A DNA stretch of 58,242 bases, taken from positions 1 through 58,242 of the IMG/VR virus record IMGVR_UViG_3300032303_000175. The stretch is one strand, 5' to 3'. Under the pieces are notes generated by a model. That model made no database searches. It was given only the letters and a program-made list of their open reading frames with translations, and was not told the DNA's origin. Shown one piece after another: positions 21,346 through 40,267 of this stretch. Origin of the DNA: a virus. Lineage: Duplodnaviria; Caudoviricetes. Numbering within the stretch: the first letter of the stretch is position 1; each line of letters begins with the position of its first letter. Position numbers and translations under genes: made by a program.

Positions 21346-24300
21346 ATGTCACTTAACTTTAATATTAACCCCTACTATGATGACTTTGATGAGAAGAAAA
21401 ATTATCATCGAATCTTGTTCCGTCCCGGATATGCGGTCCAAGCTAGAGAGTTAACTCAACTCCAAACACAAATCCAAGACCAAATCAATAAGTTTGGTAA
21501 ACACGTATTTGTTAATGGATCTGTAGTCACTGGTGGTGGAAGATTATTTGAGAACGATGTCGTTTCTATTAAATTAGATTCTTCATTTGCTGGTGTATCT
21601 GTAGACTATGCAAAATTTCAGGGTACAATCATTACCGGCGGTACTTCTGGAACAAAGGCTATAGTTAAGTTAGCTATTGGTCCTATAGGTACTGATCCTA
21701 TCACTCTATTAGTTAAAGTTATATCAGGTACAACATTTAGTTCATCAGAGACTATAACCACAGATACTGTAGTAGCTTATTCAGCTAAAATACAAACGAC
21801 AGATCCATTTAATGATGCAATCGTATTCTCTGTAGATGCTGGTGTATATTTTATTGATGGTAAATTTGTATATGTGGAAGCACAAACTATTGCTGTAGAA
21901 AAATATACAAACATTACTTCTAAGAACATTGGCTTCTTAGTGACCGAGAGTGAAGTAAATTCAGATACTGATACCAGTTTATTAGATCGAGCTCAAGGTA
22001 CTACAAACTATGCAGCACCTGGAGCTAATAGATATGGCATTACATTAACACTATCATCAAAAACTTTAGTTTCATCAGTAGCTAACTTTATTGAAATAGC
22101 TAGGGTCGTAGGCGGAGCATTAGTAGTCAATAAAGATAAAACTATCTATTCAGAGATTGGCAAAGAGCTTGCTCGTAGAACATTCGATGAGTCTGGTGAC
22201 TACACAGTTAAAAAATGGCCGATACAAATATTAGATCATCAAGCAACATCTCCAGATTCAACCAAATTTTCAGTAGCTTTAGATCCTGGAAAAGGATATG
22301 TCAAAGGCTATGAATATGAAAGTATCAATCAAGAATTCTTAACATTAGATAGAGCTAGAGATACAGCTAGCGCACTAGGTGAAAATCTAAGTGTTAATTA
22401 TGGTAATTACTTATATGTTACAAGTGTATATGGTGCATTTAGGACCACATCTAGTACACTGACATCTCTTGAATTACATGGTACGACTAGGGCTTCATCT
22501 GTAACCGGTTCAATCACTACTACAGTATTAACAGTGACAGCTGTTGGTTCTGGAGTACTTGGAATTGGTACTATACTCTCAGGAACAGGTGTTACTTCTG
22601 GAACTTATATTACTGCGCAATTAACTTCAACTGAGACTGACGGATCATTAGGCGGCAAAGGAACATATACTGTAACTCCATCTCATGCTTCACCTACAGG
22701 TAGTGTTACAATTACTGGTGCTGCAGGAGCTAATTCAAAAATTGGTACCGCTAAAATTAGATTCATGAAATGGGCCTCTGGAACGGCTGGTACTGGTGCT
22801 AAGTATAAGATGTATATATTTAATATTACTATGGATTCTGGAAAATACTTTAAAGATGTTGAATCTTTAATATACAATTCTGGATCTGGTGCATATATTA
22901 CAGCTGGAGCAAACGTTGATCTATTAAGTAAAGTTGGCGGATCTTTATCTGGAAATGTATTCTTAAATGGCCAAGACGCTCCTGGTTTAGTATTCCCATT
23001 ATCAAATCAATATGTACAATCAATAACTACTACAGAGTATAGGACTCAAAGAGCTATAGCATTAACATTTACTGCAGGCATTGCTTACTCAACACTAAGT
23101 ACTAATGAACAATGGGTAGGAGCTGCTACAGTAAGTTCTGATGATAAAAATGCACACTATCATATAGTACTTAATGCTGCACCAAGTAATGCTGGAACTA
23201 CTGGATACACTCTAGGGTCTATCGTAGATATGACTTTGACAACAAGATCTATAGTCAAGAGTGGCACAGCAAATGTCAGTCAACAAATTACTGTAGATTT
23301 AAAAGATGCGGCATTCGCAGGTACCGCAATATTAATAGCAGATATTGATCTTACTGCACAACTCCCATCAATTAGGACTAAGGCGCTATCGGGTTACTCT
23401 ATTAAGATATTGGGTACTGGTTCTGCAGGCGGTTTAAATGTATCAGCTGGTGGTAAAGATTCATTAGCTATATCAGACATATACGATGTAGCAGGTGTCT
23501 ATAATACTGGTGCAGTAAACCCAACTGCTGTCACTATTAATTCGACTACAGGAGTCCTTACATGGGGTGCAGTAGCAAAAACAGATGTAACTACAAACTA
23601 TAGTGTTGACAATGGTCAACGTGCAGAATTTTATGATCATGGTAATATAGTACTCACTGGCACAGCTCCAACAGCAACACATTATCTATTAGTAGTATAT
23701 AGAAGTTTTGCTCATACAGGCTCTGGCTATTTGTCAAAGAATTCATACTCCGTTTCATATGCAGATATCCCTACATTTACCGACCCATCTACTGGTAAGA
23801 TATATCAACTAAGAGACTCTATAGACTTCAGACCTAAGCGTGATAATGGAGCTACTACCCTATCAAATAATCAAATTCCAGACCCAGATGCAACAATGGA
23901 AATGACATATGACTATTATTTGGGTAGATTTGATAAGATCATAGCTACTTCAGATAAACAGTTTATCGTTAAGAAAGGTGTTTCTGCGATATATCCAAAA
24001 GTTCCTTCTGATGAGTCTAATGGTATGTCATTGTACATCTTAGGTATACCTCCATATACAGCAAATGTTAAAGATGTACAAATTAAATATCTCGATAATA
24101 AGCGCTATACTATGCGTGATATAGGTAAATTAGAAAAAAGAATAAACACATTAGAGTATTATACTCAATTATCATTACTTGAAAAACAAGCTAAAGATAC
24201 TTCGATCCCGGATTCTACTAATCAGGAGAAGTTTAAGAACGGTTTTGCCGTAGATCCTTTCACATCTGCAGATATATTTGCAACTACAGCTGCTACATGG

Positions 24301-26727
24301 TCTCAGCGTCGTTGGGGTTGGTGGTCATCATGGTTCAATGGCTCTAATACATTTAGTGCTGCAGCATCAAATTATAATGATAATTCTATAGCACAAGCCG
24401 CAAATATAGACTTTAAAGCTGCCATAGATCCTATCAACCAAGAATTGAGAGCACCATTTACAGTTAATTTTAGTGGATTTGATACATCAACTAAGACTAA
24501 TACTGTTAAGACTGGGGATTTGGTAACATTAGGTTTTTCTGAAGCCATTGCTATACAACAATCATTAGCTACTACATACACAAATATAAATCCATTTAAC
24601 GTTGTTAGATTTATTGGTGCTATCACACTTGAGCCAGCCTTTGATCAATGGGTAGACACACAATACTTACCTGCAGTTAATAAATTAGTTGATGTACAGC
24701 TACAAGATGCAGCTGATATTAATCAAACAGTAGTTACAGGATACTTTAGTAAAGCTAAAGTCTGGGCAACTACTAACGTTACTACTACAACTACAACTAA
24801 TGTTGTTGGTTCTACAACATCTAATTTAGGCACAAATGTAGTAGATATTCAATACATCCCATTTATTAGAGCTAATACCGTTATTGGAGTAGGTAAATCA
24901 TTTAAACCTAAATCTAGACTTTGGCCATTTGTTGAGAATACAAGCATAAGTGCATACGTTAAACCATTAACTCTGATCACTATTCAAAATCATACTGGTA
25001 CATTATTCAATGACACACAAGGCGTATATGAATCATTAACTATCCATACAGGTAGTTCAGTGGGTACACAAACTGGTACTGCTAAGACCGCGCTATACTC
25101 ACAACCTACAACAACAGACTCTACTAAACGTCTATTGACAGTATTTAGCACTACAGGAACTATTGCTGTAGGCCAATATGTAGTTGGTAGCAGTGGTGGA
25201 TACGGAGTGATTACAGCTATCAGCACATATTCTTTAGGTGATAATTTAATCCCTGATGAGTATGGTTATATTGGATTTCAGTTTAATATTCCAGCTAATA
25301 CATTTAAAACTGGAGAAAGAACTGTTAGATTAATTGATAATTCAATCAATGATGTTCAAGCTCAAGAATCTATTGGTGAAGCTAAGTATACTGCTATTGG
25401 CACACTACAGACTAAACAAGAAACGCTCTTAACTACACGATCAGTGCAAAGACAAAAGACCACTGTGACTACAGGTTATTACTATGATCCTACAGCTCAA
25501 ACTTTCATGGTAGATGACAGAGCAAATCCACAAGGATTCCATGTATCATCTGTAGATGTATATTTTAAATCTAAGTCTTCTACTATTCCTGTTACTTTAG
25601 AACTACGTAGGACGGTTAATGGTTATCCAGAGTCAGTACGTACTATTCCATTTGCTGAAGTAGTATTAAACCCAGAAGACGTAAGTATCTCAGATGATGC
25701 ATCTGTCGCTACAACATTTAACTTTGCAAATCCAATCCATCTATCCCCAGACGAATATGCTCTTGTATTAGTATCTAATTCAAATGATTATCAAGTGTTC
25801 GTATCTGAAATTGGTGGCACAGTCATAGGTACTACAACTAAAGTTGATAAACAACCGTATATTGGTTCATTATTCAAGTCACAAAATGCTTCTACATGGG
25901 AAGCTGATCAAAATAAAGATCTTAAATTTACTATCCGCAGAGCGGACTTCGTCTCTTCTGGTACTGTTGAGTTTAATATTACTGACCCATATGCATTGCT
26001 AAATTATCATACACTCTTTATCAAAACGTCTACAGTATTGCCAACAGGCACCGTAGTAAATTGGGCTGCAAAAGCTTGGTATGGAGCAAGTGCATTTGAT
26101 ACAACATGGATTCCTATTAATATTAATCAAGATATTAATTATGATGAATTAAGACAATTGGCTGCAGCAGCAAGTACTGGTACTGGCGCTCCTAGCTTAA
26201 GATTACAGGCTATATTAACCACTGACAATACATCAGTATCTCCAGCAATCGATGCTGCAGCACTTTCAGTAGTTACAGCATTAAATAGTATTAACAATGA
26301 TACTACTGGAGAAGCTAGTGCAAAATCTGGTGGTAATGCTTCAGCTAAATATATAAGTAAACCTATTAGCTTAGCAGACGGGTTTGATGCTTCTAACTTA
26401 TGTGTAACCGTAGATGTTAATATGCCATCTGGTACATCGATAGCTGTTTACTATAAGACATTGCCTACAGAAAAGACTACTCCTATTGATGATGAAAGCT
26501 GGGCAATTATGAATCAAGAGAAGGTAGTTGCTGCATCAACTACAGCGTTTGACTTTAGAGAATATAGATTCTTCCCGGTTGGTGCAACTAATGTCTATGG
26601 AGTACCACAAGATAATCCTATCACTCCTAGGTTTAATGCATTTCAAATTAAGATAGTTATGTTGTCTTCTAGTCAAGCTCAAACACCAAGACTAAGAGAT
26701 CTTAGAATTATCGCATTGGATACTTAA
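21346..26727 (+). CDS. Large virion structural protein (DUF4815/VrlC-like)
   Basis: [70 protein letters not shown]. Confidence 0.85.
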
Positions 26728-26728
26728 T

Positions 26729-26935
26729 ATGAAGATACGAGTAGAGAATGAGAGTTTAGTTAGAGACACTACTACTAATGCTATATTAGAGGTAGACATT
26801 TCTAAGTTAAATCAACACAGAGCTATAAAACAGACTATTAAAGATAGAGAACAGAAGTTAGATTATTTGCTTGAAAAAATAAACAAATTAGAATCAATTA
26901 TAGAACGGATGAATAATGGCGACAATATTACTTAG
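26729..26935 (+). CDS. Small hypothetical coiled-coil protein
   Basis: LVRD..NAI motif; coupled to flanking genes. Confidence 0.65.
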   Translation: MKIRVENESLVRDTTTNAILEVDISKLNQHRAIKQTIKDREQKLDYLLEKINKLESIIERMNNGDNIT

Positions 26936-28094
26936 ACTAGGCGCAACAGGTGCGACGGGAGTTAAAAATTCCCCTCTTACTAATGCAGAAATAGATACTA
27001 ACTTTAGTAATCTTAATACTGACATAGGTACTAGATTATTATCCACTGATTATACTGCAGCTGATATTTTAACAAAGATTAAGACTGTAGACGGTACAGG
27101 TTCAGGATTAGACGCAGATCTATTAGATGGTCTAAACGCGGTATCCGGTGCTACTGGTGCTAGCATAGTATCTCGAGATGCTTCTGGTAACTTTTCAGCT
27201 GGTACTATTACTGCAACGTTTACTGGTAATGTAACAGGTAATACTGCTGGTGTACATACTGGTGCAGTAACAGGTAATGTAACAGGTAATACTGCTGGTG
27301 TACATACTGGTGCAGTAACAGGTAATGTAACAGGTAACTTAACTGGTAATGTAACTGGTAATACTACGGGAACTCAAAATGGCGCAGTAGGTAATATTAC
27401 TCCAAGTACTGGTGCATTTACTACACTAAGTGCATCTGGAACATTATCAGCCGGTGGAGCAGTAACTTTAGGTGGTACAGTAAGTGTAAATGGTTCTAAT
27501 GGTACAACTGGTCAATACTTAAAATCTAGAGGTTCTAGTTTAAATCCAATATGGGATACCGTATCAGTTAGTTTGATTTCTCAAGTTACAGACACACTAC
27601 CACCTGGAAACGGTGGTACAGGTTTAACTTCTCCTGGTACTACAGGAAATGTATTATTATCTAATGGTACATCGTGGGATAGTCAACCTATTAATATTAC
27701 TGTAACTGAATTAAATAATGATCCCACCGGATCATTCCCAACGGATGAGCAAATAGGAACAGCTCCAATATTTGCTGCTCGAGCATGGGCCCATTTTGAT
27801 GGTACAAAAGATACTTCTAATGCTACATCTACATCAAATACAAATAGATTAATTAAAGCTAGTGGAAACGTTACATCTATATTAAGAAATTCTATTGGTA
27901 ATTATACATTAACATTTAGAACGGCTTTACCTAGTGCTAACTTTGCAGCTATAGCTACAGGATTTTTAACTTCTGGTAATGCAGCTATAGTTACTACTGA
28001 TAATTATACAACAACTACATTAACATTAAATTGTGTAGATTCTAGTAACGCTGAAGCAGACTTTTCACATGTAAACGTTGTGATATTTGGATAA
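26916..28094 (+). CDS. Tail fibre-like protein
   Basis: PLTNAEIDTNF anchor, GSGLDADLLDG, TGNV repeats, ARAWAHFDG C-terminal domain. Confidence 0.75.
   Translation: MATILLRLGATGATGVKNSPLTNAEIDTNFSNLNTDIGTRLLSTDYTAADILTKIKTVDGTGSGLDADLLDGLNAVSGATGASIVSRDASGNFSAGTITATFTGNVTGNTAGVHTGAVTGNVTGNTAGVHTGAVTGNVTGNLTGNVTGNTTGTQNGAVGNITPSTGAFTTLSASGTLSAGGAVTLGGTVSVNGSNGTTGQYLKSRGSSLNPIWDTVSVSLISQVTDTLPPGNGGTGLTSPGTTGNVLLSNGTSWDSQPINITVTELNNDPTGSFPTDEQIGTAPIFAARAWAHFDGTKDTSNATSTSNTNRLIKASGNVTSILRNSIGNYTLTFRTALPSANFAAIATGFLTSGNAAIVTTDNYTTTTLTLNCVDSSNAEADFSHVNVVIFG
27225..27337 (+). repeat. 48-nt tandem duplication within TGNV repeats
   Basis: ggtaatgtaacaggtaatactgctggtgtacatactggtgcagtaaca twice plus a partial copy. 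Confidence 0.85.
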
Positions 28095-28103
28095 GGACAT
28101 TAA

Positions 28104-29204
28104 ATGGCAAGCTTAACACTACGAAGCATTAAGGGATCTCCTCTAACACTAGCAGAGGTAGATGCAAACTTTACTGCATTAAACACTGAACTTGGCGATA
28201 AAGTAGCTACTACATCATATACTGCGGCAGATGTACTTTCGAAACTATTAACTGTTGATGGAGCAAGCTCCGGTTTAGATGCTGACTTTGTTGACGGTTT
28301 AAATCCATCTGCAACAAATGTTGGTAATAGTTTAGTATCTAGGAATGCTTCAGGTAACTTTGCTGCAGGTACTATTACTGCAACATTAACTGGTAATGTA
28401 ACAGGCAACTTAACTGGAAATGTAACAGGCAACTTAACTGGAAATGTAACAGGCAATATTAGCGGTTCAGCTGGTACATTAGCTAATGTTAGAACTATCT
28501 CTATAACAGGAGATGGTTCATGGTCTGCATCTTACGATGGTTCTGCAAATACAACTGGTGCTTTTACATTAGCAACTAGTGGTGTAGTTGCTGGAACATA
28601 TACTAAGATTACTGTCGATGCTAAAGGCAGAGCTACTGTTGGTGCATCACTAAGCGGCACTGATGTTACTACAGCTTTAGGTTATACTCCATGGCATTCA
28701 GGTAATGATGGAACTGGATCTGGATTAGATGCAGACTTATTAGATGGATATAATTCAGCAACTACTGCTACAGCAAATACTATAGCGTTGCGAGATTCTT
28801 CTGGTGACTTAACAGCGAATGTATTTAAAGGCACAGCAACGTCTGCAAGATATGCTGACTTAGCAGAAAAATATACTACAGATAAAGAATACTCGATTGG
28901 CACTGTCATTGTCATCTCAGATAAAGAAGATTCTGAATGCTCAGCATCAGACTATATAGGACAACATGCTATAGGAGTTATATCAGAGAATCCAGCATTC
29001 TTAATGAATTCTGAATCATCTGGTCAAGCAGTTGCCATCAAAGGAAGAGTGCCTGTTAGAATAATTGGCCCAATTAGAAAAGGTGAATCTGTTTGTGCAG
29101 CTACAAATGGTCAAGCTACACTAGGTCAACTTAATGCGATCGCAGTTGCATTAAAGACAGATTTAACACATGAAGAAAAATTAGTGGAGTGCTTTATATT
29201 ATAA
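28104..29204 (+). CDS. Tail fibre-like protein with C-terminal autoproteolytic chaperone-like domain
   Basis: N-terminus paralogous to 26916; GLDAD twice; ARYADLAEKY..GVISENPAFLMN..GRVPV. Confidence 0.75.
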   Translation: MASLTLRSIKGSPLTLAEVDANFTALNTELGDKVATTSYTAADVLSKLLTVDGASSGLDADFVDGLNPSATNVGNSLVSRNASGNFAAGTITATLTGNVTGNLTGNVTGNLTGNVTGNISGSAGTLANVRTISITGDGSWSASYDGSANTTGAFTLATSGVVAGTYTKITVDAKGRATVGASLSGTDVTTALGYTPWHSGNDGTGSGLDADLLDGYNSATTATANTIALRDSSGDLTANVFKGTATSARYADLAEKYTTDKEYSIGTVIVISDKEDSECSASDYIGQHAIGVISENPAFLMNSESSGQAVAIKGRVPVRIIGPIRKGESVCAATNGQATLGQLNAIAVALKTDLTHEEKLVECFIL

Positions 29205-29704
29205 CACTTAATGAAGTTGTTGAATTTATTCACAACCCTTTGTCATACAAGCAAAATTTAGTTTCATTAATAAATGACAGGGGGATGCAAATCCCCCTTA
29301 ATCATTCTAGTGAACTATATGATGATGAGCCTAAAACTATTAAGATCGAAGGGATGGAACGCTATTCTAAAGCAATTTTAGATAAGTGTCGTGAGTTAGC
29401 TAATGAATATGATCATCATGGTCCTGTGACATGTCATGCATTCATTGCTCAAGAAAACTCTCCGTCATTTGATATTCATACTGATCCAGACGATGTCATC
29501 ATAGTCTGTTGTGAAGGTAAAAAAACCATGACGGTGGATGGCGCATATATAGTATTAGAAGCAGGAGAACATGTTCATATTCCAGCTAATACACCGCATC
29601 AAGCACTAAATGAACATGCAGCATTAACGTTAAGCTTTGGTTTAGAAAACTATTTGAAGGATAAATCTCATAATGAATTGGATGTTTTACCTAAAGACGA
29701 CTGA
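29189..29704 (+). CDS. JmjC/cupin-4 family oxygenase
   Basis: SFDIHTD..EGKK..IPANTPHQA (HxD...H triad). Confidence 0.8.
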   Translation: MLYIITLNEVVEFIHNPLSYKQNLVSLINDRGMQIPLNHSSELYDDEPKTIKIEGMERYSKAILDKCRELANEYDHHGPVTCHAFIAQENSPSFDIHTDPDDVIIVCCEGKKTMTVDGAYIVLEAGEHVHIPANTPHQALNEHAALTLSFGLENYLKDKSHNELDVLPKDD

Positions 29705-30716
29705 GACATGTAACTTAAACTGTCGCCATTGTTTTACTAACGGTATAAATGGCGCAAAGATATATTGGGATCATAATAAAGTAATAGATTGGATCCATAG
29801 GTTTTCAAAACACGCAGCAGATACTGATACAGCTCATTGTGAGTTTCATGGTGGAGAACCATTCTTAGTCCCAGTGTCTCAAATGTATGAGGTATGGGAC
29901 AAGTGTAAGACTGCATTTACTAATATGACGTGGGGTGCAACCACTAATTTAGTATTTAAGTTATATCAAGAACATATAGATTTAATAAAGGGTCCATTTG
30001 AAGGTCGCATTGGCACTTCATGGGATCCAAAAATAAGATTTGATAATAAGAAGCAAGTAGATCTTTGGCGAAGTAATGTAAAGACATTGCTGTCTGAAGG
30101 CATAACAATAAGATTGTTTATAAGTGTCACCAAAGATACTATAGCTATAGATCCAATAGTATTGTTGAGATGGATAAGAAGGTTAGGAGTTCAAGAAGTA
30201 TCATTTGAGAGATTAACTAATAATGGTAACGCTAAGAAATTCCCAGAGATATTCCCATCTAATATAGACCAAGATGCTTGGTTCCTTAAGATGCACGAAC
30301 AATCTGCACAATATGGAACAAGAGATTGGTTTGATAATGACTTCTTAGAAGTAGTATACTCTAAGTTTGAGACTGGATTCAATAAAGGTGGTACATTCTG
30401 TAGAGATTGTGAAGAGAAGATATTCACATTAAATGCTGATGGAACCATATCTGGATGCCCAAATTCTGCGCCAGAGTTTCAATTTGGACATATAGAAGAT
30501 CCTATAAAAGATCTTATAAATAGTCCAATAAGATTAGAAAACATGGCATGTGAAGCATCAAGGAACGAGATATGTTATTCGTGTGATGTATTTCAATACT
30601 GTGGTGGAGACTGTCACCAATTAGCCTGGGAAGGCGATTTATGTGGAGCTCCAAAGAGTTTAATGAGAGAACTTGCAAAGACTCAGAGAAAAGTATTCTC
30701 TATAATGCAAGTATAA
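29673..30716 (+). CDS. Radical SAM/SPASM-domain enzyme 1
   Basis: CNLNCRHC, FHGGEP; SPASM-type CRDC..GCPN..CYSC..CGGDC..C. Confidence 0.92.
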   Translation: MNWMFYLKTTETCNLNCRHCFTNGINGAKIYWDHNKVIDWIHRFSKHAADTDTAHCEFHGGEPFLVPVSQMYEVWDKCKTAFTNMTWGATTNLVFKLYQEHIDLIKGPFEGRIGTSWDPKIRFDNKKQVDLWRSNVKTLLSEGITIRLFISVTKDTIAIDPIVLLRWIRRLGVQEVSFERLTNNGNAKKFPEIFPSNIDQDAWFLKMHEQSAQYGTRDWFDNDFLEVVYSKFETGFNKGGTFCRDCEEKIFTLNADGTISGCPNSAPEFQFGHIEDPIKDLINSPIRLENMACEASRNEICYSCDVFQYCGGDCHQLAWEGDLCGAPKSLMRELAKTQRKVFSIMQV

Positions 30717-30719
30717 ATA
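30712..30719 (+). promoter_or_regulatory. Late promoter for the CHxS-tail protein
   Basis: Exact TATAAATA followed by SD aagga; second exact copy at 30515-30522. Confidence 0.75.
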
Positions 30720-30736
30720 GTATAAAGGAAGAATAG

Positions 30737-31309
30737 ATGGCAACTTTAAATAACCCAATTAACCCGCAGAATATAGTCGATAGATTTGCAGACTATGTGG
30801 TAGCTACAGCAAACTCTGGTATTGCATGGGGTACTGATGCTTATCCATTTGCAGAATGGACTTATGGTGCTGAATTCGGCGGTACAATTGCTGGTAAAGC
30901 TATCGGCATAACTGGACGTAATATTGATGCGGTAGGAAATGTTGTTAATGCAGCTAACATCTATAATACATTATTGACTGAGACTGCTACTTATACTAAT
31001 ATTAGAAACTTAAGAGCTTTATTATTTATAGATGGTGATGGAGGTAATACTGGTTCATACCCAAATCCAGGATATGTATATGATGCTACAGCCGCGGCAT
31101 ATTTTACTACTGCATATAGACAGACGATCGGAGCTGGAGCATCAGATGTGGTGTCAGGCAGTATTGCTACATTAGTGGGCTTAGAAACATTTTTTGATAA
31201 TTTAAGAACATCATATAATTCAGCTAGAGGAAACACAGTAACATTACAAGTAAACGTATGTCATGCTTCGTGTCATAGTAGTTGTCATGGTTCAAGAGGA
31301 AGAAGATAA
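30737..31309 (+). CDS. Probable virion protein / modification substrate with C-terminal (CHxS)3-RGRR tail
   Basis: Ala/Gly/Thr-rich 190 aa; all Cys and His lie in the terminal CHASCHSSCHGSRGRR. Confidence 0.7.
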   Translation: MATLNNPINPQNIVDRFADYVVATANSGIAWGTDAYPFAEWTYGAEFGGTIAGKAIGITGRNIDAVGNVVNAANIYNTLLTETATYTNIRNLRALLFIDGDGGNTGSYPNPGYVYDATAAAYFTTAYRQTIGAGASDVVSGSIATLVGLETFFDNLRTSYNSARGNTVTLQVNVCHASCHSSCHGSRGRR

Positions 31310-32028
31310 TGAATATTGTTGAAACTATTGCTCCTATTGCAATAGAAGATTTGAAGAAATACTTTGTTGATAAAAGCACTCTTTATATTATTGACTACAG
31401 TAAAAGCCAGATAAAAGAACAAAAGCTATTAACTTATCTAAGTAACTTAGAGATCCCGTGTGATATAGATCTAAGTAAATTAGATGCGTCAGAGATGTAT
31501 GAGCTACTTAAAGCATACATGGAAACTACAGTGATAGTAAATCTATTATCTTTAGAGCTATTAATTATAGATGTATTAAAAGAAGCTAAAGGATTAAATA
31601 AAAAAGAAGTTCATAAAGAATTTATATCCGCAAATAAAGAACTCATTGATAGTTGGATTAGTAAATTGGATAGCTTGACATTATATAATATGTATGCTAT
31701 TAATAATGATGAATTTCAGGCATTTGCTAAGCAATTTCCAGAAGATGTTGATAGAAGTTTAAACGGTATTAATTTCATCAGCTTATTAAAGAATCCACAT
31801 TTCTATGATTTTTATAAGAAGATCGAGACTGACAAATTAAAATTCTATACTAACTATTTTAATGACTATATGTTTAAAGGTAAAAACTTATATCACTATT
31901 GGGCTAATCAGAACAATCCGCTATTCTTATTAACGTATGGTATTGCAGAAGGTTTGGTATCTTCTGAAGATTATATCATAGCAAAAACGCAAGATATCCA
32001 GGAGTTATCAAATGTTTCATCTGTTTAA
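31309..32028 (+). CDS. Hypothetical protein of the radical SAM cluster
   Basis: ORF track starts at 31282; the ATG at 31309 overlapping the upstream stop (TAATG) is more likely. Confidence 0.7.
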   Translation: MNIVETIAPIAIEDLKKYFVDKSTLYIIDYSKSQIKEQKLLTYLSNLEIPCDIDLSKLDASEMYELLKAYMETTVIVNLLSLELLIIDVLKEAKGLNKKEVHKEFISANKELIDSWISKLDSLTLYNMYAINNDEFQAFAKQFPEDVDRSLNGINFISLLKNPHFYDFYKKIETDKLKFYTNYFNDYMFKGKNLYHYWANQNNPLFLLTYGIAEGLVSSEDYIIAKTQDIQELSNVSSV

Positions 32029-33193
32029 AAAAGTATACATAGATTTTGATGATAAAATCAATATGAGTTACGATAGGATCATTTGCTCTAATGAATTTGG
32101 CAAAAAAGCTGATGCTGCTGATTTATCGAGAGTATTCTATGGAGAACTTATAGCTACATCTAAATCTATAGATGATCTTATTGGAAGAAATAAATCATTC
32201 GAAACATTGATAGAATTATTTGAAGAATTAAATACTAGAGTTGATAATACTGATAGCCCAGTATATATTTACTGTGATAGAGAATCTTATATTAGATTTG
32301 TTGCTAAGTGGTTAAGAGTTTTGCTTCCATTCTGTGATGCTGTTCATGGCTGGAAGTTTTTAAAATCTCATATATTTAAAGAAAAAAACTTTGTAAATTC
32401 ACGATTATCTGCGTCAGAAAGCTTTTGTAAAGACATTAATAAATGGACAATGCTAGAAGTAGAATTTAAACATTATTGGGATCAAGAAGCACTAATTACT
32501 TCTGAAAGATTAAAGTACACTCCGTTTTTAGAGAAAGTTAAAACTAGCTTGAGAGTAGAATTTTTATTAGCTGGATACTTATATGATAAAAGATATGGAG
32601 ATATATTAGCACAATGCATTACTCCTCTAATTAAAAAAGATCTAGAAAAATTTTTAAATGAACATAAAGAAATTATATTAGTACATTTTCAAAGACCTAT
32701 ATTTCAGCAATTATTAGAAGTACAAAATGGACCATATACATTTGATAACTTTTATGATATGATGGATGATCCGGCCCCGCTTGTACAATTAATGTTTAAT
32801 CCTGAAATATGGGGTGAAGATAGAAGCTCTATGTTTGCGGAATCATCAAAAGGAAATATAAATTTTTCTGGATTTACTGATGAAGATATTGAAAATCTTA
32901 AAAAATATAGCGTAATAGTTGGTAAAATTTGGAGCGATGAAGAATGGTACATGACGCTTAGATCTGAAACTGATAAGTTTGAATTTATTAAGATGCTTAG
33001 AAATAAAGATTACTTTACTGTAGAAGATTTAGATGAAATTATAAACTATGAAATATTCCATCAACATCATGCAGCAGGATCGTTTTATGCTATAGATCTT
33101 AGGACTGTAAATACTTATTTTATTGATCATATTCTAATGAATCATGAGGATAAGTCTAAACTTAGACCTTATGTATTTGAAATGCCAACTTAA
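32012..33193 (+). CDS. Hypothetical protein of the radical SAM cluster
   Basis: 393-aa ORF overlapping its upstream neighbour; no recognised motif. Confidence 0.7.
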   Translation: MFHLFKKVYIDFDDKINMSYDRIICSNEFGKKADAADLSRVFYGELIATSKSIDDLIGRNKSFETLIELFEELNTRVDNTDSPVYIYCDRESYIRFVAKWLRVLLPFCDAVHGWKFLKSHIFKEKNFVNSRLSASESFCKDINKWTMLEVEFKHYWDQEALITSERLKYTPFLEKVKTSLRVEFLLAGYLYDKRYGDILAQCITPLIKKDLEKFLNEHKEIILVHFQRPIFQQLLEVQNGPYTFDNFYDMMDDPAPLVQLMFNPEIWGEDRSSMFAESSKGNINFSGFTDEDIENLKKYSVIVGKIWSDEEWYMTLRSETDKFEFIKMLRNKDYFTVEDLDEIINYEIFHQHHAAGSFYAIDLRTVNTYFIDHILMNHEDKSKLRPYVFEMPT

Positions 33194-33210
33194 ATTAATT
33201 ATTCTATATT

Positions 33211-34266
33211 ATGAAAACTATACCAATCATTCCAATTAAAAATGACACAGCGACATATGAAATAATTAAATCTAAAATAATTGATCATTCAGAAATAGTT
33301 GTCAATTTTTTTGATTATTGTAACATGAGCTGCGTGTTTTGTCCGCAAGATCATGATAATAAAACTGGTATAAGTAAAGATGAAATACTTTCTAAAATAC
33401 CATTTGTTTTAAATTATATCCACTCTAACGAGAAAACAACCACCTTTTTATTGCATCTAATGGGTGGAGAATTATTCCAAGATGATTTAATAGAATCCGG
33501 AATTTTAGATTATTATTCAGAATTTATTGATCAACTAGAAAAAAATAAAAAAGATAAAATTTTAAATTATAATTTTAGTACTAATTTAGTATTTTCTAAA
33601 ACTAAAGAAGTTTTAGAATTTTGTAAAAAACATAATTTAAAATTGTCAGTTAGTTACGATTGTGATGGTAGATTTAATAAATTGCAATTACAAAAATTTA
33701 AACAAAATATTAATATATTTTTACAGCATATTAAATTAATATCTGGTGTTTTAACTAAACCAAATATTAAAAAAATTATTGAAGGAGATAGTTATTTAGA
33801 TTATCTATATAGTCGATTCGATTGTTATTGGGATCATTTACTAATAAGTGATAAAAAATTAGAATACTTACTGCCAGCAGAATCTGACTTATTAAAATTT
33901 TATACTCATTTAATAGATCACTATCCAAATAGTATTAATGTACATCAATTTTTACATAATGATACAAAAACCACAAAAATGTCTTGTACTAGAGGAAACA
34001 GTTTTACTGTTTTATATAATAATTCTGTACCTAAAGGTTGTTCTAGTTCTGTTTTAATGAAAGGAAACTTAGAAAATAGTAAAACAAGTGACTTAGGTAC
34101 TACTAAAATTATAGAAAATTTTTTAATAGAAAATGAATGTTTATCATGCGAGTATTATCAACGGTGCAATTTATCATGTTTTGTTCATAATGATTATAAA
34201 AATCTAATTAAAGATGTAACAAAATGTGTATTTAAAGAAGTGTTTGAATATGCTGACACAAAATAA
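33211..34266 (+). CDS. Radical SAM enzyme 2 with Cys-rich SPASM-like C-terminus
   Basis: CNMSCVFC, MGGELF; SC..GC..CLSC..CNLSC..C. Confidence 0.88.
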   Translation: MKTIPIIPIKNDTATYEIIKSKIIDHSEIVVNFFDYCNMSCVFCPQDHDNKTGISKDEILSKIPFVLNYIHSNEKTTTFLLHLMGGELFQDDLIESGILDYYSEFIDQLEKNKKDKILNYNFSTNLVFSKTKEVLEFCKKHNLKLSVSYDCDGRFNKLQLQKFKQNINIFLQHIKLISGVLTKPNIKKIIEGDSYLDYLYSRFDCYWDHLLISDKKLEYLLPAESDLLKFYTHLIDHYPNSINVHQFLHNDTKTTKMSCTRGNSFTVLYNNSVPKGCSSSVLMKGNLENSKTSDLGTTKIIENFLIENECLSCEYYQRCNLSCFVHNDYKNLIKDVTKCVFKEVFEYADTK

Positions 34267-35998
34267 AATAACTTTACACTCTTTAAAAATTAAAAATATT
34301 AATGCTAGATTAAAAATTGCATTTATCAATCCACCACATGCTGATTGGTCATTAGCTAATAATGCAACGTTTTTAATGATGAAAAGTCATTATATAAGAA
34401 ATGGAAAATATTCTGATTTTGTTGAATGGATCCCACCGTTATATAAATGGAATGCATATAATAATTACGCTGAAATATATGATGAAGTCAAAGAGGCTGA
34501 TGTTATTATGTTTTCATCATATACATGGAATGCAATAATGATTGATGAAATATGTCAATACATTAAATTAAAAAATCCAAATATATTAACTATTATTGGA
34601 GGACCTCACATTGGAACCAACGAACCAGATTTATTAGAAAAAAGATACAAATTATATGATTATATCTGTCAACCGACAAAACCTGGGGAAACTTTTATTG
34701 AAGATTTTATAAATTCCTGGTTTGAAAATAATTATAAACCAATACATGCTGATATTTCTTGGGAAATAAGATCTGACATACAGCGTAATCATTATATAGA
34801 TAAAGAAAATTATTCTGTATATGAGGATAATCAAGAATATTTAGCTACGGCAATTAAATATGCTAAAGATAATAAAATGGAACCATTCGTTATTATAGAA
34901 ACCACTCGTGGGTGTCCATATAAATGTGTATTTTGCGAATGGGGCGGTGGAATTAATACCAAAATTATTAAAAAAGATATTGATATTGTTAAAAGAGATA
35001 TACTAGCTTTGATAAATGCCGGATATAAAGATACATATCTTACAGATGCTAATTTTGGAGTTTTTGAAGATAGAGATATAGAAATTTTTAGATTTGGATG
35101 GCAAAATAGATTATATTTAAGTGATATATCTACAGTTAAATCTAAAGATTTAAAAAGAAGAAAACGCTTGGTAGATAAATGGTTTGAGGTAGTTGGGCCC
35201 GGTCCAGATACATATAGAAAGTCTTTTAATAGTGCTGATATGTGGAAAGATACAGACTATGTATCCGTAGTTCCAACGGTAAGTATACAAAGTATAAGTG
35301 ATGAAGCTATGATAGTAGCTGATAGAATAGATTTATCATGTAAAGATAAATTAGAATTGAGTAAACATATTAATGCCCAATGTGCTAAATATGGATATCC
35401 TATACCACCATTAGAATTAATTTTAGCGATGCCAGGATCTACTATACAAGATTTTTATGATGAAATGGAATTAATATGGAATTTTAAAGCTTGGGGAAGT
35501 TTTCGACATGATTATATGTTTTTACCAGATTCCAAATTAAATTCATTAGAATATAAAGAAAAATATAAAATAGAAACTGTAGATGTCTATTCTAGTATTA
35601 TAGAAGAAGACGGAGTAGATAGTTGGAATAATTTATATAAAAATAATAAAAATTATTTTAAAACTATTAAGTCATGCTATTCATTTACATCAGAAGAAAT
35701 GAAAGAGATGTGGTTTATGAATATTGCTGCTAATTATTTGCTACAATATGTATATCCGCCTTATGAAAATTTAATAAAACCTGGAGAATTTGGAAAAATT
35801 TGCTATAAGATTATTAAACAATTGGATGGATTTGATCAAATACTACTAGCAGTTGATAATATATTTAATACATCAACTCCGCGAAGTTCTATAAGAGAAT
35901 TAAATGGCAGATTTAGAGTTGAAGTCATAGAAGAATTGTTAAAAGAAAATGAACTTATCATAAAAAATGAGGTAATGAGATCATGCATGAAATTTTAA
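34226..35998 (+). CDS. B12-binding-domain radical SAM enzyme
   Basis: N-terminal FSSYTWN..IIGGPH, then ETTRGCPYKCVFCEWG, DANFG; true start may be the ATG at 34250. Confidence 0.87.
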   Translation: MYLKKCLNMLTQNKITLHSLKIKNINARLKIAFINPPHADWSLANNATFLMMKSHYIRNGKYSDFVEWIPPLYKWNAYNNYAEIYDEVKEADVIMFSSYTWNAIMIDEICQYIKLKNPNILTIIGGPHIGTNEPDLLEKRYKLYDYICQPTKPGETFIEDFINSWFENNYKPIHADISWEIRSDIQRNHYIDKENYSVYEDNQEYLATAIKYAKDNKMEPFVIIETTRGCPYKCVFCEWGGGINTKIIKKDIDIVKRDILALINAGYKDTYLTDANFGVFEDRDIEIFRFGWQNRLYLSDISTVKSKDLKRRKRLVDKWFEVVGPGPDTYRKSFNSADMWKDTDYVSVVPTVSIQSISDEAMIVADRIDLSCKDKLELSKHINAQCAKYGYPIPPLELILAMPGSTIQDFYDEMELIWNFKAWGSFRHDYMFLPDSKLNSLEYKEKYKIETVDVYSSIIEEDGVDSWNNLYKNNKNYFKTIKSCYSFTSEEMKEMWFMNIAANYLLQYVYPPYENLIKPGEFGKICYKIIKQLDGFDQILLAVDNIFNTSTPRSSIRELNGRFRVEVIEELLKENELIIKNEVMRSCMKF

Positions 35999-36501
35999 AA
36001 AATGTATTAGAACATGGATATCACAAATTATTTGAACCAACCGGTTTGGAATTAATAGATATTAATAAATTTAAATTATTACATGTTGAAGAACGCGGTA
36101 GAGATAATGGCGTAGATGATGTACCTCTAGATTTGTCTAATAGGTTAAATTTGTTTGCGCAATATCTTAAAGAAAAATATATAAATCCACTTTGGCCGAA
36201 TTCAGTATATAATAAATTTATAGTTTGGGAAGGTACTGACAAAGATAATGAAGGATGGCATACCGATTTATTTGAAGGATATGATATTTTTATGTTGTAT
36301 TACTTTGATGATACTAAAGAATCTACTGGAGGAGCGATACAATTTAAATGGAAAGATGATCAAGTTTCATATCAACCAAAAGCCGGAGATCTATTTATAG
36401 TTAATAATTGTAGAGGATTTTGGCATAGAGCAACATCTACTACTATAACTCGAAGAGTAGCTTCATTTGATTTTAATGTAGGATTATATAATAATGATTG
36501 A
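35983..36501 (+). CDS. 2OG-Fe(II) oxygenase
   Basis: WHTD..GGAI..PKAGD..WHRA..RRVAS. Confidence 0.82.
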   Translation: MHEILKNVLEHGYHKLFEPTGLELIDINKFKLLHVEERGRDNGVDDVPLDLSNRLNLFAQYLKEKYINPLWPNSVYNKFIVWEGTDKDNEGWHTDLFEGYDIFMLYYFDDTKESTGGAIQFKWKDDQVSYQPKAGDLFIVNNCRGFWHRATSTTITRRVASFDFNVGLYNND

Positions 36502-36793
36502 TAAATTAGTAGAACAAAAAAACAAAATTGGTGATGAACGTGATTTGTGTGCTGAATTGTGTAATCTGTGGTTAACACATTTATATGAATTTCAAGATGA
36601 TCCAGAAAATTATAAAAAATATTTAAATTTAATATCTAATATGGAAGCTTATGGACAAGATTTAAAAGAGCAAATTAGAGCTATTAATAGACAAATTTGT
36701 AAAATTGAGGGGGTAGAATCCATAGGAGATACTAAGTATGTAAGAGAATGCAATAATAAACATGGATTAGATATGCCAAATGAAGACAAATGA
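36494..36793 (+). CDS. Hypothetical helical protein
   Basis: 99-aa ORF overlapping both neighbours. Confidence 0.6.
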   Translation: MIDKLVEQKNKIGDERDLCAELCNLWLTHLYEFQDDPENYKKYLNLISNMEAYGQDLKEQIRAINRQICKIEGVESIGDTKYVRECNNKHGLDMPNEDK

Positions 36794-37289
36794 TGTAAAT
36801 TCATTTTTTATTAATGGATATATGCATGGACACATTGATGAGATAGTATCTATAGACTTCGATAAGTACACCTTTATAGATTGTAATAATGAAAATTGTG
36901 AAAATATGGTATTTGATGCATCTTTAACTCCACTATTAAATAAGTTTTATAAAATACTTGAAGATAGATTTGTCAGCAAAATATTTAATTCATATACATT
37001 ATATCAATTAAATGCATGGAAAGGCGTTGATTCATATTCTAGCGAATGGCATAATGATTTTACTTCTACTTCAAATTTTAATTCAAATATATTGATCTAC
37101 TTAGATGATAGCTATGATAAAAATACTATTGAAATAAGAAATGGATCTCAAGAGTTTGTCATATATCCTAAGAAGGGTGACTTTGTTTGGTTAAATCAGT
37201 CACATAATTTTCAACACAGAGCCAAACATGTGATAGGAAATCGTCGTTTAATGAGCTTTGAAATGTATATAAATGATCTATGGACTTAA
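36780..37289 (+). CDS. 2OG-Fe(II) oxygenase (paralog of 35983)
   Basis: WHND..PKKGD..FQHRA..RRLMS. Confidence 0.8.
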   Translation: MKTNDVNSFFINGYMHGHIDEIVSIDFDKYTFIDCNNENCENMVFDASLTPLLNKFYKILEDRFVSKIFNSYTLYQLNAWKGVDSYSSEWHNDFTSTSNFNSNILIYLDDSYDKNTIEIRNGSQEFVIYPKKGDFVWLNQSHNFQHRAKHVIGNRRLMSFEMYINDLWT

Positions 37290-38353
37290 TAATCAAACCA
37301 ACGGAAAAGTGTAACTTTAAATGTACATTTTGTTCGAGCACACATATCACTGAAGATAAGACTGCAGAGTTAGATCATCAGCATATCTTTGACTTCTTAA
37401 AGAGGTTCCCAGAAACAAATACTATCATAGTCAATGGTGGAGATCCGTTGATGATGGATCCTGAGTATTATTGGAAAATCATAGAACACTTAGATGATAT
37501 AGGCTCTCATGCTAGCATATCATTCACTACAAACTTATGGCCGTTCTATAAGAACCCAAATAAGTGGAAAGAACTATTTAATCATCCAAGACTCGGAATA
37601 ACTACATCGTTCCAGTATGGTGGAGGTAGACTTAAAGGAGACTTGACAGTATTTAGTGAAGAAGACTTTTGGAAGTGTTCAGATGCTATGTTAGAACACT
37701 GCGGATATAGACCAGACTTCATAGCAGTCATCACTGAAGAGAATGAACATGATGCAATAAAAAACGTCGAGTTAGCTAAAAAGATGGGTGTAGAGTGTAA
37801 GCTTAACTATGCATTCTCATCTGGGCCGCCAGTAAAGTTTAAAAACATAATCATGGGTCAAGAAGGTAAGCCATACCTATTAGCAGACATATATGAGATA
37901 TATGTTGAGATATGGAAAAGGGGTTTGACTGAGTGGGAATATAATACTAAACAGATGGTTAAACGTTTGCGAGGTGAAGGTACTACATGTCCTCAAAATA
38001 GAGATTGTGATGACAGCATTAGGACACTACAGCCATCAGGTGACTACTATTCATGTGGTGCTTTTGGCGATGACCAACAACACCCAATAGACTTTAAAAA
38101 GGAAATGTCCGGTGAAAAGATATATCCTATTAAGTTTCAACCCGAACTACAGAGTTTAAAACAATCATGTTATACATGTCCTATGTTTCAAATATGTAAC
38201 GGATGCAAGAAGACTATAACAGACCTTAAGAACTATAACTTAGTTGAAGAGCATTGTTATAAGATGAAACAACTTGCACCAGATATAATCAAAGCTAATG
38301 GATTAAATTTAGAACCAACTCCATATGAGAGGGAATATGATTATATCAATTAA
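37280..38353 (+). CDS. Radical SAM/SPASM-domain enzyme 4
   Basis: IKPTEKCNFKCTFC, NGGDP; CPQNRDC..SCG..CYTC..CNGC..C. Confidence 0.92.
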   Translation: MDLIIKPTEKCNFKCTFCSSTHITEDKTAELDHQHIFDFLKRFPETNTIIVNGGDPLMMDPEYYWKIIEHLDDIGSHASISFTTNLWPFYKNPNKWKELFNHPRLGITTSFQYGGGRLKGDLTVFSEEDFWKCSDAMLEHCGYRPDFIAVITEENEHDAIKNVELAKKMGVECKLNYAFSSGPPVKFKNIIMGQEGKPYLLADIYEIYVEIWKRGLTEWEYNTKQMVKRLRGEGTTCPQNRDCDDSIRTLQPSGDYYSCGAFGDDQQHPIDFKKEMSGEKIYPIKFQPELQSLKQSCYTCPMFQICNGCKKTITDLKNYNLVEEHCYKMKQLAPDIIKANGLNLEPTPYEREYDYIN

Positions 38354-39275
38354 TCCATGGTACTATTGTAACTTTAAGTGTGATTTCTGTTATCTAACTA
38401 AAGAACAGTTGGATGATAAGACTCTATTAGATTTAAGAGTATTAGAAAAGAAACTTGATGAAATACTATTAGTTGAAGAGATCCATGGTATAGACTTATA
38501 TGGTGGAGAGATAGGCTTATTACCTGAAGATTATGTAGAAGAGTTATGTGATATAGTCAAATCAAGAGGCATTGATGACATAAACATAATCACTAATCTA
38601 AGTATGGTCAATAGAGTCATAACCAACCCAGATTTATATGTATCTGTTAGCTATGACTTTGAATGTAGGGAACAACATGATAGGGTATGGGACAACATGT
38701 TTGCTCTCAATAAACCGTTCTCTATATTAATCTTAGCCAGTAAAGATCTAATAAATAAAGATGTAGGTCAGATGATATCTCAACTAAACCTACTAAGTAA
38801 CTTAAGTTCTGTAGAGATAAAACCTTATAGTATCAACCAAGCAAATTGCCACTCTGTCAGTCATAAAGACTTTGAGTTATTTGTACAAAAATGGTTGGAT
38901 AGCGATATACAAATGAGGTTTGAGTTTGTCAATGAAAAGAACATCAAAAGTGTTTTGGATGGATCTCGTAATGCATTCAGTAATGACCATGTATACATCA
39001 CGCCAACTGGAGAATATGCGGTCCTTGAGTTTGACTTAAATGATAAAGAATACTTTAAGACCTTAGACTCAATACAAGAGTATAAAGATTGGGCGATTAA
39101 TGAGCCTAATAAGAATGTAAGTGATATATGTAAGTCTTGTGACTATTATGGTAAATGCTTAACAGAACACTATCGATATGTTAAAGACTTGGATAATGGA
39201 TGTAATGGATATAAAGGACTAATTGATTGGTATAAACATGGAAGACTGGAAGATAAGACAAGAGCTATATCATAG
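38325..39275 (+). CDS. Radical SAM enzyme 5 with partial SPASM-like domain
   Basis: CNFKCDFC, YGGE; CKSC..C..H..C; likely start ATG 38337. Confidence 0.88.
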   Translation: MRGNMIISINPWYYCNFKCDFCYLTKEQLDDKTLLDLRVLEKKLDEILLVEEIHGIDLYGGEIGLLPEDYVEELCDIVKSRGIDDINIITNLSMVNRVITNPDLYVSVSYDFECREQHDRVWDNMFALNKPFSILILASKDLINKDVGQMISQLNLLSNLSSVEIKPYSINQANCHSVSHKDFELFVQKWLDSDIQMRFEFVNEKNIKSVLDGSRNAFSNDHVYITPTGEYAVLEFDLNDKEYFKTLDSIQEYKDWAINEPNKNVSDICKSCDYYGKCLTEHYRYVKDLDNGCNGYKGLIDWYKHGRLEDKTRAIS

Positions 39276-39642
39276 ACTAAATACTGTACATGATGATGAC
39301 TTAAATGATAAAGATATAGTCATCACTGATAATATAGTGACAGATGCAGTCCGATACTTTAAGGAAGATAACTTAGGTTGGATATATCCATCTAAGAGCT
39401 ATATGGTTGCCATATGCTATGCTAGATGGTTATCAGAAGAGTTTGGTAGAAGTCCTATTGACTACTTAAATGATATAGATTTGCTATTTGGGAATGATCC
39501 TTATTTCTTAACATATGATGAAGATGATATTACATATAATCAAATATTAAGTTATATAGGTGGTTGGCAGTTTGATGAGACTAAAGGATATGTCCTTGAT
39601 GTCAAATCATATTTTTTAAAGGAGTTTATGATAAATGATTAA
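39223..39642 (+). CDS. Hypothetical protein of the radical SAM cluster
   Basis: Acidic ORF; likely start ATG 39238. Confidence 0.65.
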   Translation: MIGINMEDWKIRQELYHRLNTVHDDDLNDKDIVITDNIVTDAVRYFKEDNLGWIYPSKSYMVAICYARWLSEEFGRSPIDYLNDIDLLFGNDPYFLTYDEDDITYNQILSYIGGWQFDETKGYVLDVKSYFLKEFMIND

Positions 39643-40216: not shown

Positions 40217-40267
40217 ATCGCTCTTAATCTTATCATAAATATAGATATCTAAACTAGGACTACTAAT

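Follow-up and report, generated by a model that had tools for sequence, protein, structure and literature searches.

A conserved Cys-His C-terminal tail as a candidate substrate of a radical SAM and Fe(II) oxygenase cassette in phages and Bdellovibrionota

The locus described here raises the question of why a phage protein that gathers all of its Cys and His residues in a short terminal repeat should be encoded among radical S-adenosylmethionine (rSAM) enzymes next to tail-fibre genes. The DNA is IMG/VR virus record IMGVR_UViG_3300032303_000175 (Duplodnaviria; Caudoviricetes), a contig of 58,242 bases with an estimated completeness of 36%, which was analysed over its full length and is referred to below as the window. 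The open reading frame (ORF) at 30737..31309 on the plus strand encodes a protein of 190 amino acids, hereafter the tail protein, in which Cys175, Cys179 and Cys183 alternate with His176, His180 and His184, and which contains no further Cys or His. An earlier note on this DNA, made from the sequence alone, had pointed out that all of these residues fall in a (CHxS)3 motif followed by RGRR and the stop codon, and this was confirmed. The tail protein forms the conserved, non-enzymatic centre of a roughly ten-gene cassette in the tail-fibre module, and we estimate a probability of about 0.5 that its tail is a protein substrate of the cassette enzymes and is carried on the virion by a fibre-associated protein.

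The tail is far better conserved than the rest of the protein. Relatives were chosen by sequence, with no motif filter. A word-indexed search yielded 830 relatives of 104–333 amino acids, and among the best 120 of them (58–87% identity) the ending CHxxCHxxCHxxRxRR is present in 119, with Asn replacing the first His in the remaining one. A profile search of 1.84 billion representatives yielded 836 clusters (50% identity clusters) at E ≤ 1e-3 and 545 at 1e-10. The strict tail motif ends 137 of the best 150 of these 836 matches; the remaining 13 come from truncated contigs or are naturally occurring variants in which a Gly is added before Arg, a Cys is missing or the ending is of the GDGPG type. 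Mean column identity in a 46-row alignment is 26%, and the sole invariant columns are C175, H176, C179, H180, C183, H184, R187, R189 and R190. Position 4 of the repeat is Ser in 80–89% of 165 distinct genes. The synonymous codons of the tail vary freely (TGT/TGC, 99/66; AGA and CGN mixed), indicating that selection acts on the tail peptide. The reading frame is a real gene of a large family, and its tail is held by selection; conservation among homologs, on which the earlier note had staked its proposal, was thus upheld.

The family is also variable in size and copy number. A motif scan of viral contigs identified at least 119 stretches, with tail-ending ORFs of 124 to 364 amino acids. Adjacent paired copies of 125–140 amino acids each occur in approximately two dozen loci, and four repeats are present in a few genes. 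Such small paired paralogs lie directly behind the fibre gene at loci L035, L060, L069, L102 and L121 and about 20 more, and their adjacency hints at a hetero-oligomer. Variant tails include four CH repeats with a Gly/Pro-rich end replacing RGRR, three repeats stopping after the last Ser and forms that have lost one Cys (loci L254, L272, L273, L277 and L278; proteins P0265 and P0270).

No Pfam or NCBIfam family was matched by the tail protein. It matches phrog_35144, whose function is unassigned, over residues 102–190 (E = 5e-8), and ORF071 of the Ralstonia jumbo phage RSF1 matches the same PHROG at 4.7e-129. Searches of the phage collection by tblastn and megablast with the tail protein and with window positions 26000–40000 found nothing, and the jumbo-phage relatives were reached only via the product of the neighbouring gene, p239. 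The ESM Atlas gave no usable match for the tail protein or p239. Our literature searches turned up no description of the family, and those with the tail strings returned only noise among the papers listed. The family is large and unnamed; no Pfam or NCBIfam model, found paper or named PHROG function describes it.

The tail gene and the rSAM genes are strongly linked, in both directions. The order fibre–cupin–rSAM1–tail protein–p239–p393–rSAM2...rSAM3–rSAM4–p139–2-oxoglutarate (2OG) oxygenase recurs in most of the fetched loci (the genes are listed in Table 1). Among the distinct tail genes, 139 have 1 kb or more of upstream sequence, and in 90 of these an rSAM1-like gene lies within 1.5 kb upstream. 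A p239 homolog was found within 1.5 kb downstream in 94 of the 145 tail genes with enough downstream sequence, and the tail-gene stop and p239 start codons overlap in 47 of these 94 pairs. The exceptions to this linkage are mostly small tandem forms placed directly behind the fibre gene. Starting from rSAM3, 46 of the 57 loci with at least 7 kb of upstream sequence contain a strict tail 2–8 kb upstream on the same strand, and 5 further loci contain a variant CH-repeat tail. The earlier note had proposed rSAM adjacency as a property to score, and both counts (90/139 and 46/57) bear it out. The two-way linkage with SPASM rSAMs, Fe(II) oxygenases and fibre genes is cross-kingdom, being found in phages and, as described below, in bacteria.

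In the window, the tail gene directly follows the rSAM/SPASM gene at 29673..30716, and the late-promoter-like box at 30712, its second copy at 30515 and a Shine-Dalgarno sequence are present, all as the earlier note had described. We take TATAAATA to be a promoter word of the T4 late type. Eight of its 15 copies in the window sit 12–50 nt upstream of ORF starts, the placement expected of such promoters, and the word is not enriched window-wide (15 observed versus 11.5 ± 3.3 expected). The tail gene has its own box, and none precedes the enzyme ORFs from 29189 to 40216. The note had further called the body Ala/Gly/Thr-rich and virion-like; A+G+T amounts to 35.3% in the tail protein, inside the range of the baseplate and fibre proteins of the window (28–56%) and above that of the cassette enzymes (9.5–18%). 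The composition of the tail protein thus resembles that of the structural proteins of the window. The protein (30737–31306) also contains a single Lys (0.5%) versus 5.3% Arg. In a search of sequencing runs, no RNA run was listed, and the DNA runs bear lake or freshwater labels at small shares; no claim on habitat or expression is made from them.

The cassette is a co-directional block with baseplate wedge genes, a gene for a 1793-amino-acid structural protein and two fibre genes upstream and three tail-fibre genes downstream. A search among longer proteins identified two relatives of 374 and 461 amino acids that retain the tail (P0126 and P0127). Both contain a Gly_rich_2 domain, either inserted after the first helix or added N-terminally, which hits phrog_863 ('tail fiber assembly') as well as further tail PHROGs, and a beta-rich insert is present at the same body site in other relatives. 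The body thus tolerates insertions and resembles a scaffold on which variable modules are displayed. A link to the virion and its fibres is suggested by the position of the cassette between baseplate and tail-fibre genes, the tandem copies after the fibre gene, the Gly_rich_2 relatives, the gene cluster of phage Atu_ph07 described below and the composition. The virion carrier that the earlier note had postulated thus gains indirect support from composition, fibre-module position, the Gly-rich relatives and, within the available part of the Atu_ph07 report, a cluster boundary.

AlphaFold2 run on the alignment predicted the fast-evolving body with confidence as an alpha/beta fold (predicted local distance difference test score, pLDDT, 87.7; predicted template modelling score 0.81). 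Confidence drops to 73 and then 53 across the last two ten-residue blocks, which contain the tail, and from this low pLDDT the tail looks flexible in the model; a short helix is placed at residues 177–179. The body model found nothing in the PDB with Foldseek at E ≤ 1e-3, and the best Z score among 48,161 chains with VIA-align was 3.9. In BFVD, the body model retrieved uncharacterized relatives only, the Atu_ph07 protein among them. The p239 model gave nothing with Foldseek and a best VIA-align Z of 4.8 that was confined to residues 1–58, and phmmer searches with rSAM1, rSAM3 and P0127 found no match in the PDB sequences. Two other roles for the tail were considered and rejected as unlikely: a C-terminal sorting signal, because there is no hydrophobic stretch in the tail, and a CX3CH site for c-type haem, given that this is a phage-encoded, cytoplasmic protein.

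p239 and rSAM3 each match the same 15 cultured-phage records, which comprise Chiangmaivirus-like jumbo phages of Ralstonia and Burkholderia, Atu_ph07, Phosso and pPa_SNUABM_DT01. In all four jumbo lineages read (RSF1, Atu_ph07, pPa_SNUABM_DT01 and Phosso), the gene that follows the cupin and rSAM genes ends in the tail. The rSAM3 protein is 60–63% identical between the T4-like window contig and phiKZ-like, Rak2-like and other jumbo phages, whereas the bodies of the tail proteins are hardly alignable between the window and these lineages, and this difference suggests either strong constraint on the enzyme or its recent transfer. Against Bdellovibrionota chromosomes, rSAM3 gives BLAST E-values of 1e-132 to 1e-139 (loci L207–L212). 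The cassette of the Ralstonia jumbo phages is interrupted midway by a gene for an HNH endonuclease and two genes for dihydrofolate reductase (RSF1, L033 10429–11718). The jumbo-phage papers list rSAM, cupin and 2OG annotations only. In Atu_ph07, 131 virion proteins were identified by mass spectrometry, mostly from three gene clusters, one of which is given as 'CDS 170-215' in the part of the report available (PMC6102473). The tail protein (gp170) is the first gene product of this virion cluster, and p239 (gp169) and an rSAM (gp168) lie outside it. Such a position hints that the protein is associated with the virion but does not prove it.

Bacterial loci were identified by a motif scan of one genome per species. 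The scan gave 47 stretches, among which 4 had no in-frame terminal tail and 4 were low-complexity junk, leaving 39 genuine loci. Twenty-seven of these are labelled Bdellovibrionota, including Bdellovibrio, Bacteriovoracaceae, Halobacteriovoraceae and Pseudobdellovibrionaceae, and some of the contigs are 1.3–2.8 Mb in size. Homologs of rSAM1–4, p239 and p139 lie within 8 kb in most of the Bdellovibrionota loci. In three genomes, the cassette is flanked by housekeeping genes (PNPase, DinG-like helicase, SMC, YchF, serine dehydratase and ABC transporter), indicating that it is chromosomal there and not part of a prophage. A cassette match was found in 10 of 301 sampled Bdellovibrionota genomes, and the cassette is therefore an accessory island in this group. 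The tail proteins of Bdellovibrionota have no signal peptide. The other 12 loci come from metagenome-assembled genomes (MAGs) and one isolate, with labels such as Marinovum, Rickettsiales, Rhodobacteraceae and Methanobacteriota. Locus L163 has the whole phage gene order, and L162, L163, L171, L181, L198 and L200 are arranged as in phages (a large structural protein, then fibre, cupin, rSAM and tail protein); these six contigs are probably phage contigs misbinned into MAGs.

Several neighbours of the bacterial cassettes were also recorded. A 413-amino-acid protein encoded beside the cassette of genome G003 (L209:10768–12006, minus strand) has a hydrophobic, prepilin-like N-terminus and, at its C-terminus, a Peptidase_S74 chaperone domain, and an S74-type protein adjoins the cassette in 7 of the 27 Bdellovibrionota loci (L209 itself and BLAST relatives in 6 others). 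Bdellovibrio is described as recognizing prey with phage-like S74 fibres in the part of the report available (PMC10769870). A 2355-amino-acid RCC1 and Big_2 protein adjoins the cassette in a Bacteriovoracaceae genome (L207:9869–16933, minus strand). An RCC1-repeat protein of 612 amino acids is also encoded in the window, at 54855–56693.

The features of the window are collected in Table 1. The 10-gene cassette with its four rSAM paralogs, two co-conserved unknown proteins and a cupin with a JmjC-type signature goes beyond what the earlier note had described. The four rSAMs are paralogs (phrog_1802) of the size of anaerobic sulfatase-maturating enzymes (anSMEs), and their CX3CX2C motif begins at residue 14, so that they carry no leader-binding extension. 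The fibre protein fib366 has a weak Peptidase_G2 IMC match of 20 bits, which is under the cut-off. The two fibre proteins encoded at 26916–29204 share an N-terminal region, a GSGLDADLLDG motif and runs of the heptad T-G-N-V-T-G-N/L.

Table 1. Features of the tail gene and its neighbourhood in the window
Feature	Position	Strand	Evidence or remark
1793-aa structural protein (phrog_358), 68-aa ORF and 392-aa fibre	21346..28094	+	Conserved upstream neighbours
Tail-fibre protein fib366	28104..29204	+	PHROG tail fibre; precedes cassette in most loci
Cupin/JmjC-like Fe(II) oxygenase, HxD...H	29189..29704	+	Pfam Cupin_2 1.3e-8; JmjC_2 31.8 bits vs cut-off 22; conserved upstream partner
rSAM/SPASM paralog 1 (rSAM1), directly upstream of tail gene	29673..30716	+	Pfam; phrog_1802; NCBIfam SPASM 33.4 bits vs cut-off 27
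Second TATAAATA copy, within rSAM1 gene	30515..30522	+	Sequence
T4-type late-promoter-like TATAAATA, 18 nt before ATG	30712..30719	+	Putative function
Shine-Dalgarno-like AAGGAAG	30725..30731	+	Direct sequence reading
Cys-His-tail protein coding sequence, 190 aa + stop	30737..31309	+	830 homologs; 836 representative clusters
Variable alpha/beta body, residues 1–174	30737..31258	+	AlphaFold2 model, no PDB fold match; mean column identity 26%
(C-H-x-S)x3 core, (C-H-A-S)(C-H-S-S)(C-H-G-S)	31259..31294	+	Cys and His invariant
R-G-R-R C-terminus	31295..31306	+	R187, R189 and R190 invariant in alignment; absent in rare natural variants
Stop TAA of tail gene	31307..31309	+	Sequence
p239 (phrog_20767), co-conserved, unknown fold	31309..32028	+	Start overlaps tail-gene stop (TAATG)
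p393, co-conserved, no family	32012..33193	+	Synteny
rSAM paralog 2 (rSAM2)	33211..34266	+	Pfam/PHROG/NCBIfam profiles, synteny
B12-binding rSAM, optional member	34226..35998	+	Pfam B12-binding 35.8 bits; KedN5-type 3.6e-22; only part of loci
2OG-Fe(II) oxygenase, 99-aa ORF and second oxygenase-like ORF	35983..37289	+	Profile matches
rSAM/SPASM paralog 3 (rSAM3), most conserved gene	37280..38353	+	60–63% identity to jumbo phages
rSAM paralog 4 (rSAM4)	38325..39275	+	Pfam/PHROG/NCBIfam profiles, synteny
p139 (phrog_20737), co-conserved	39223..39642	+	Synteny
Two 2OG-Fe(II) oxygenases (phrog_81)	39635..40864	+	PHROG

The closest kind of known system is that of rSAM/SPASM-modified Cys-rich proteins. 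According to the available part of the report on CrpA/CrpC of Methanococcus voltae (PMC13692751), a SPASM enzyme introduces ranthionine cross-links at the protein level. Here, too, a SPASM rSAM gene lies beside the gene for a whole protein, as with the Cys-rich protein that CrpC modifies, and not beside one for a short peptide. However, there is no sequence relation to CrpA/CrpC, the present protein has three Cys only, in a terminal period-4 motif with His, and several rSAM paralogs and oxygenases are present in a phage or predator context. The PapA/PapB ranthipeptide system likewise repeats Cys at a fixed period and has a SPASM maturase of similar length, but the substrate candidate here is a folded 190-amino-acid protein with no Asp/Glu acceptor in its tail; PapB is the best NCBIfam match of rSAM1, at 44.4 bits versus a cut-off of 340. 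A Cys-rich segment encoded beside an rSAM/SPASM gene, the trait of the ranthipeptide, sactipeptide and QhpC systems, is found here, and the curated scores of PapB, QhpD, the sactipeptide models SkfB and StsB and further SPASM maturase models were not reached by the cassette enzymes (QhpD, 22 bits versus 453; SkfB, 19.7 versus 300).

Other resemblances are of the same partial kind. H-x-S triplets adjoin rSAM genes in the Hxs system, but the repeat here has a period of 4 rather than 3, an invariant Cys before each His and only three copies, and it ends a 190-amino-acid protein rather than a short peptide; HxsB (21.1 bits versus 370) and HxsC (30 versus 267.9) were not matched at equivalog level. 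The CXXX-repeat system combines Cys at each fourth residue with an rSAM maturase, whereas here the repeat stands at the end of a protein and includes a fixed His, and its maturase model, TIGR04115, was matched at 20.4 and 23.4 bits versus a cut-off of 350. The anSMEs act on a protein Cys with no leader-binding domain, and in C-H-x-x-R, the last repeat, Cys and Arg are spaced as in the sulfatase motif C-x-P/A-x-R. However, the +2 residue in the 165 genes is G in 75, S in 43, T in 23, N in 10, A in 4 and C in 4, and never Pro, there is no sulfatase domain in the body, and TIGR03942 was matched at 34.3 and 39.3 bits versus 349.45. The CXXX-repeat and sulfatase-motif resemblances, like the occurrence in jumbo phages and Bdellovibrionota, had not been part of the earlier note. 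On these scores, the tail system is outside the Hxs, PapB, CXXX-repeat and anSME families. Accordingly, the membership in Hxs, triceptide, ranthipeptide or sactipeptide systems that the earlier note had considered is contradicted by enzyme scores far under the cut-offs and by the different period and acceptor residues, and its further suggestion of a metallophore mimic that engages a host uptake receptor is supported by no result.

Two non-enzymatic protein types were also compared. The tail protein resembles gp38-type adhesin/assembly proteins (phrog_863) in being the product of a small late gene in a fibre module with a variable body, and two relatives have the Gly-rich domain, but for the protein of the window no match to them was seen in sequence or fold. 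The presence of S74-type proteins beside 7 of 27 Bdellovibrionota cassettes recalls the MAT fibres of Bdellovibrio; however, the MAT proteins, as described in the available part of PMC10769870, are about 1000 amino acids long and have signal peptides, whereas the tail proteins have none and are unrelated.

Cys residues of peptides are known targets of SPASM enzymes, and JmjC_2-type oxygenases hydroxylate Arg and His of proteins. In the reading that we prefer, the rSAM/SPASM enzymes would act on the three Cys of the tail to form thioether cross-links or oxidation products, and the Fe(II) oxygenases may act on its His or Arg; together these activities would explain why Cys, His and Arg are the residue types held invariant. 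A modified peptide would then stand at the C-terminus of a protein that is made late and associated with the virion, probably with its fibres, and whose variable body may face the prey or host. Several observations weigh against this reading. All of the chemistry on the tail is our inference and cannot be read from sequence, and the C-x3-C-x3-C/H-x3-H-x3-H ladder also suits a metal site. No Asp/Glu acceptor is present among the six commonest residues at the 16 tail positions in 165 genes, apart from two Asp at position 8. All cassette enzymes score far under every curated family cut-off, no RRE (the recognition element of RiPPs, peptides made by the ribosome and modified after translation) was found, and the Pfam scan of the rSAMs, p239, p393 and p139 for it or a PqqD-like recognition domain gave no match. 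The small tandem forms are several kilobases from the rSAM genes in loci long enough to show this (L102 and L121), and 6 of the 57 rSAM3 loci have no tail gene within 10 kb. TATAAATA lies within 80 nt upstream in just 26 of 130 viral homolog genes, and the virion association, as a hint from the available part of the Atu_ph07 report, rests on a cluster boundary.

The ladder leads to an explanation in which the tail is an unmodified metal- or Fe-S-binding module with helical i, i+4 Cys/His ladders, possibly between subunits, and the enzymes act on fibres or small molecules. A comparable case is offered by T4 fibre proteins, which have metal sites on their axis, only Cys, His and Arg are invariant, AlphaFold2 places its short helix within the repeat, and the fibre neighbours offer alternative candidate substrates for the 2OG oxygenases. 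We nevertheless hold this explanation, although a live rival, to be unlikely, because it leaves unexplained both why the gene is so tightly linked, in either direction, to four SPASM paralogs in phages and bacteria and why Ser is strongly preferred at each fourth position (80–89%). Combining a variable body with a constant end is also what would be expected of a docking or assembly tag with which the body would plug into a conserved fibre or baseplate site, or which the co-translated p239/p393 would hold as chaperones, with no covalent change. The placement of the tail gene after fibre genes and the overlap of its stop codon with the p239 start (47/94 pairs) agree with such a tag. The attachment ends of fibre proteins, however, are usually N-terminal, rare variants drop RGRR yet keep the CH repeats, and a tag gives no reason for the invariant Cys/His or for the enzymes; we regard it as a live rival too, but an improbable one.

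A set of rSAM, B12-rSAM and 2OG enzymes is typical of RiPP clusters, and mycofactocin and pyrroloquinoline quinone precursors carry their core C-terminally. The tail protein might by this analogy be non-structural, with the body as a long leader and the 16-residue tail as a RiPP core that would be cleaved from it and set free as a small product or cofactor, or it might serve as an enzyme carrier. RiPP leaders are usually conserved and their cores variable, whereas the reverse is seen here; the body accommodates domains of the tail-fibre type, neither a protease nor an exporter turned up in those cassette proteins that were compared with Pfam or PHROGs, and the Atu_ph07 virion-cluster hint, from the part of that report available, also points elsewhere. 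We consider a released product very improbable. Modification of the tail by the cassette enzymes on a virion protein is thus the reading that we retain. A bolder extension, for which we see little likelihood at present, is that the SPASM paralogs, cupin and 2OG oxygenases jointly convert the tail into one cross-linked, cofactor-like Cys/His structure on fibre-associated proteins, with which phages and Bdellovibrionota would grip or breach the envelope of their prey, and that the cassette is a 'predation module' exchanged between them.

The rSAM genes of large phages have so far been merely listed or loosely tied to DNA repair or the boosting of host metabolism. This analysis provides them with a concrete candidate substrate, shows the cassette as one unit and places it in the attachment module. 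If the product of the tail proves to be a new Cys/His structure, the finding would rank higher than a variant of the rSAM/SPASM-modified Cys-rich proteins. The range of the cassette, which extends from uncultured T4-like phages over four lineages of jumbo phages to the chromosomes of Bdellovibrionota, points to a common and so far undescribed chemistry of bacterial predation.

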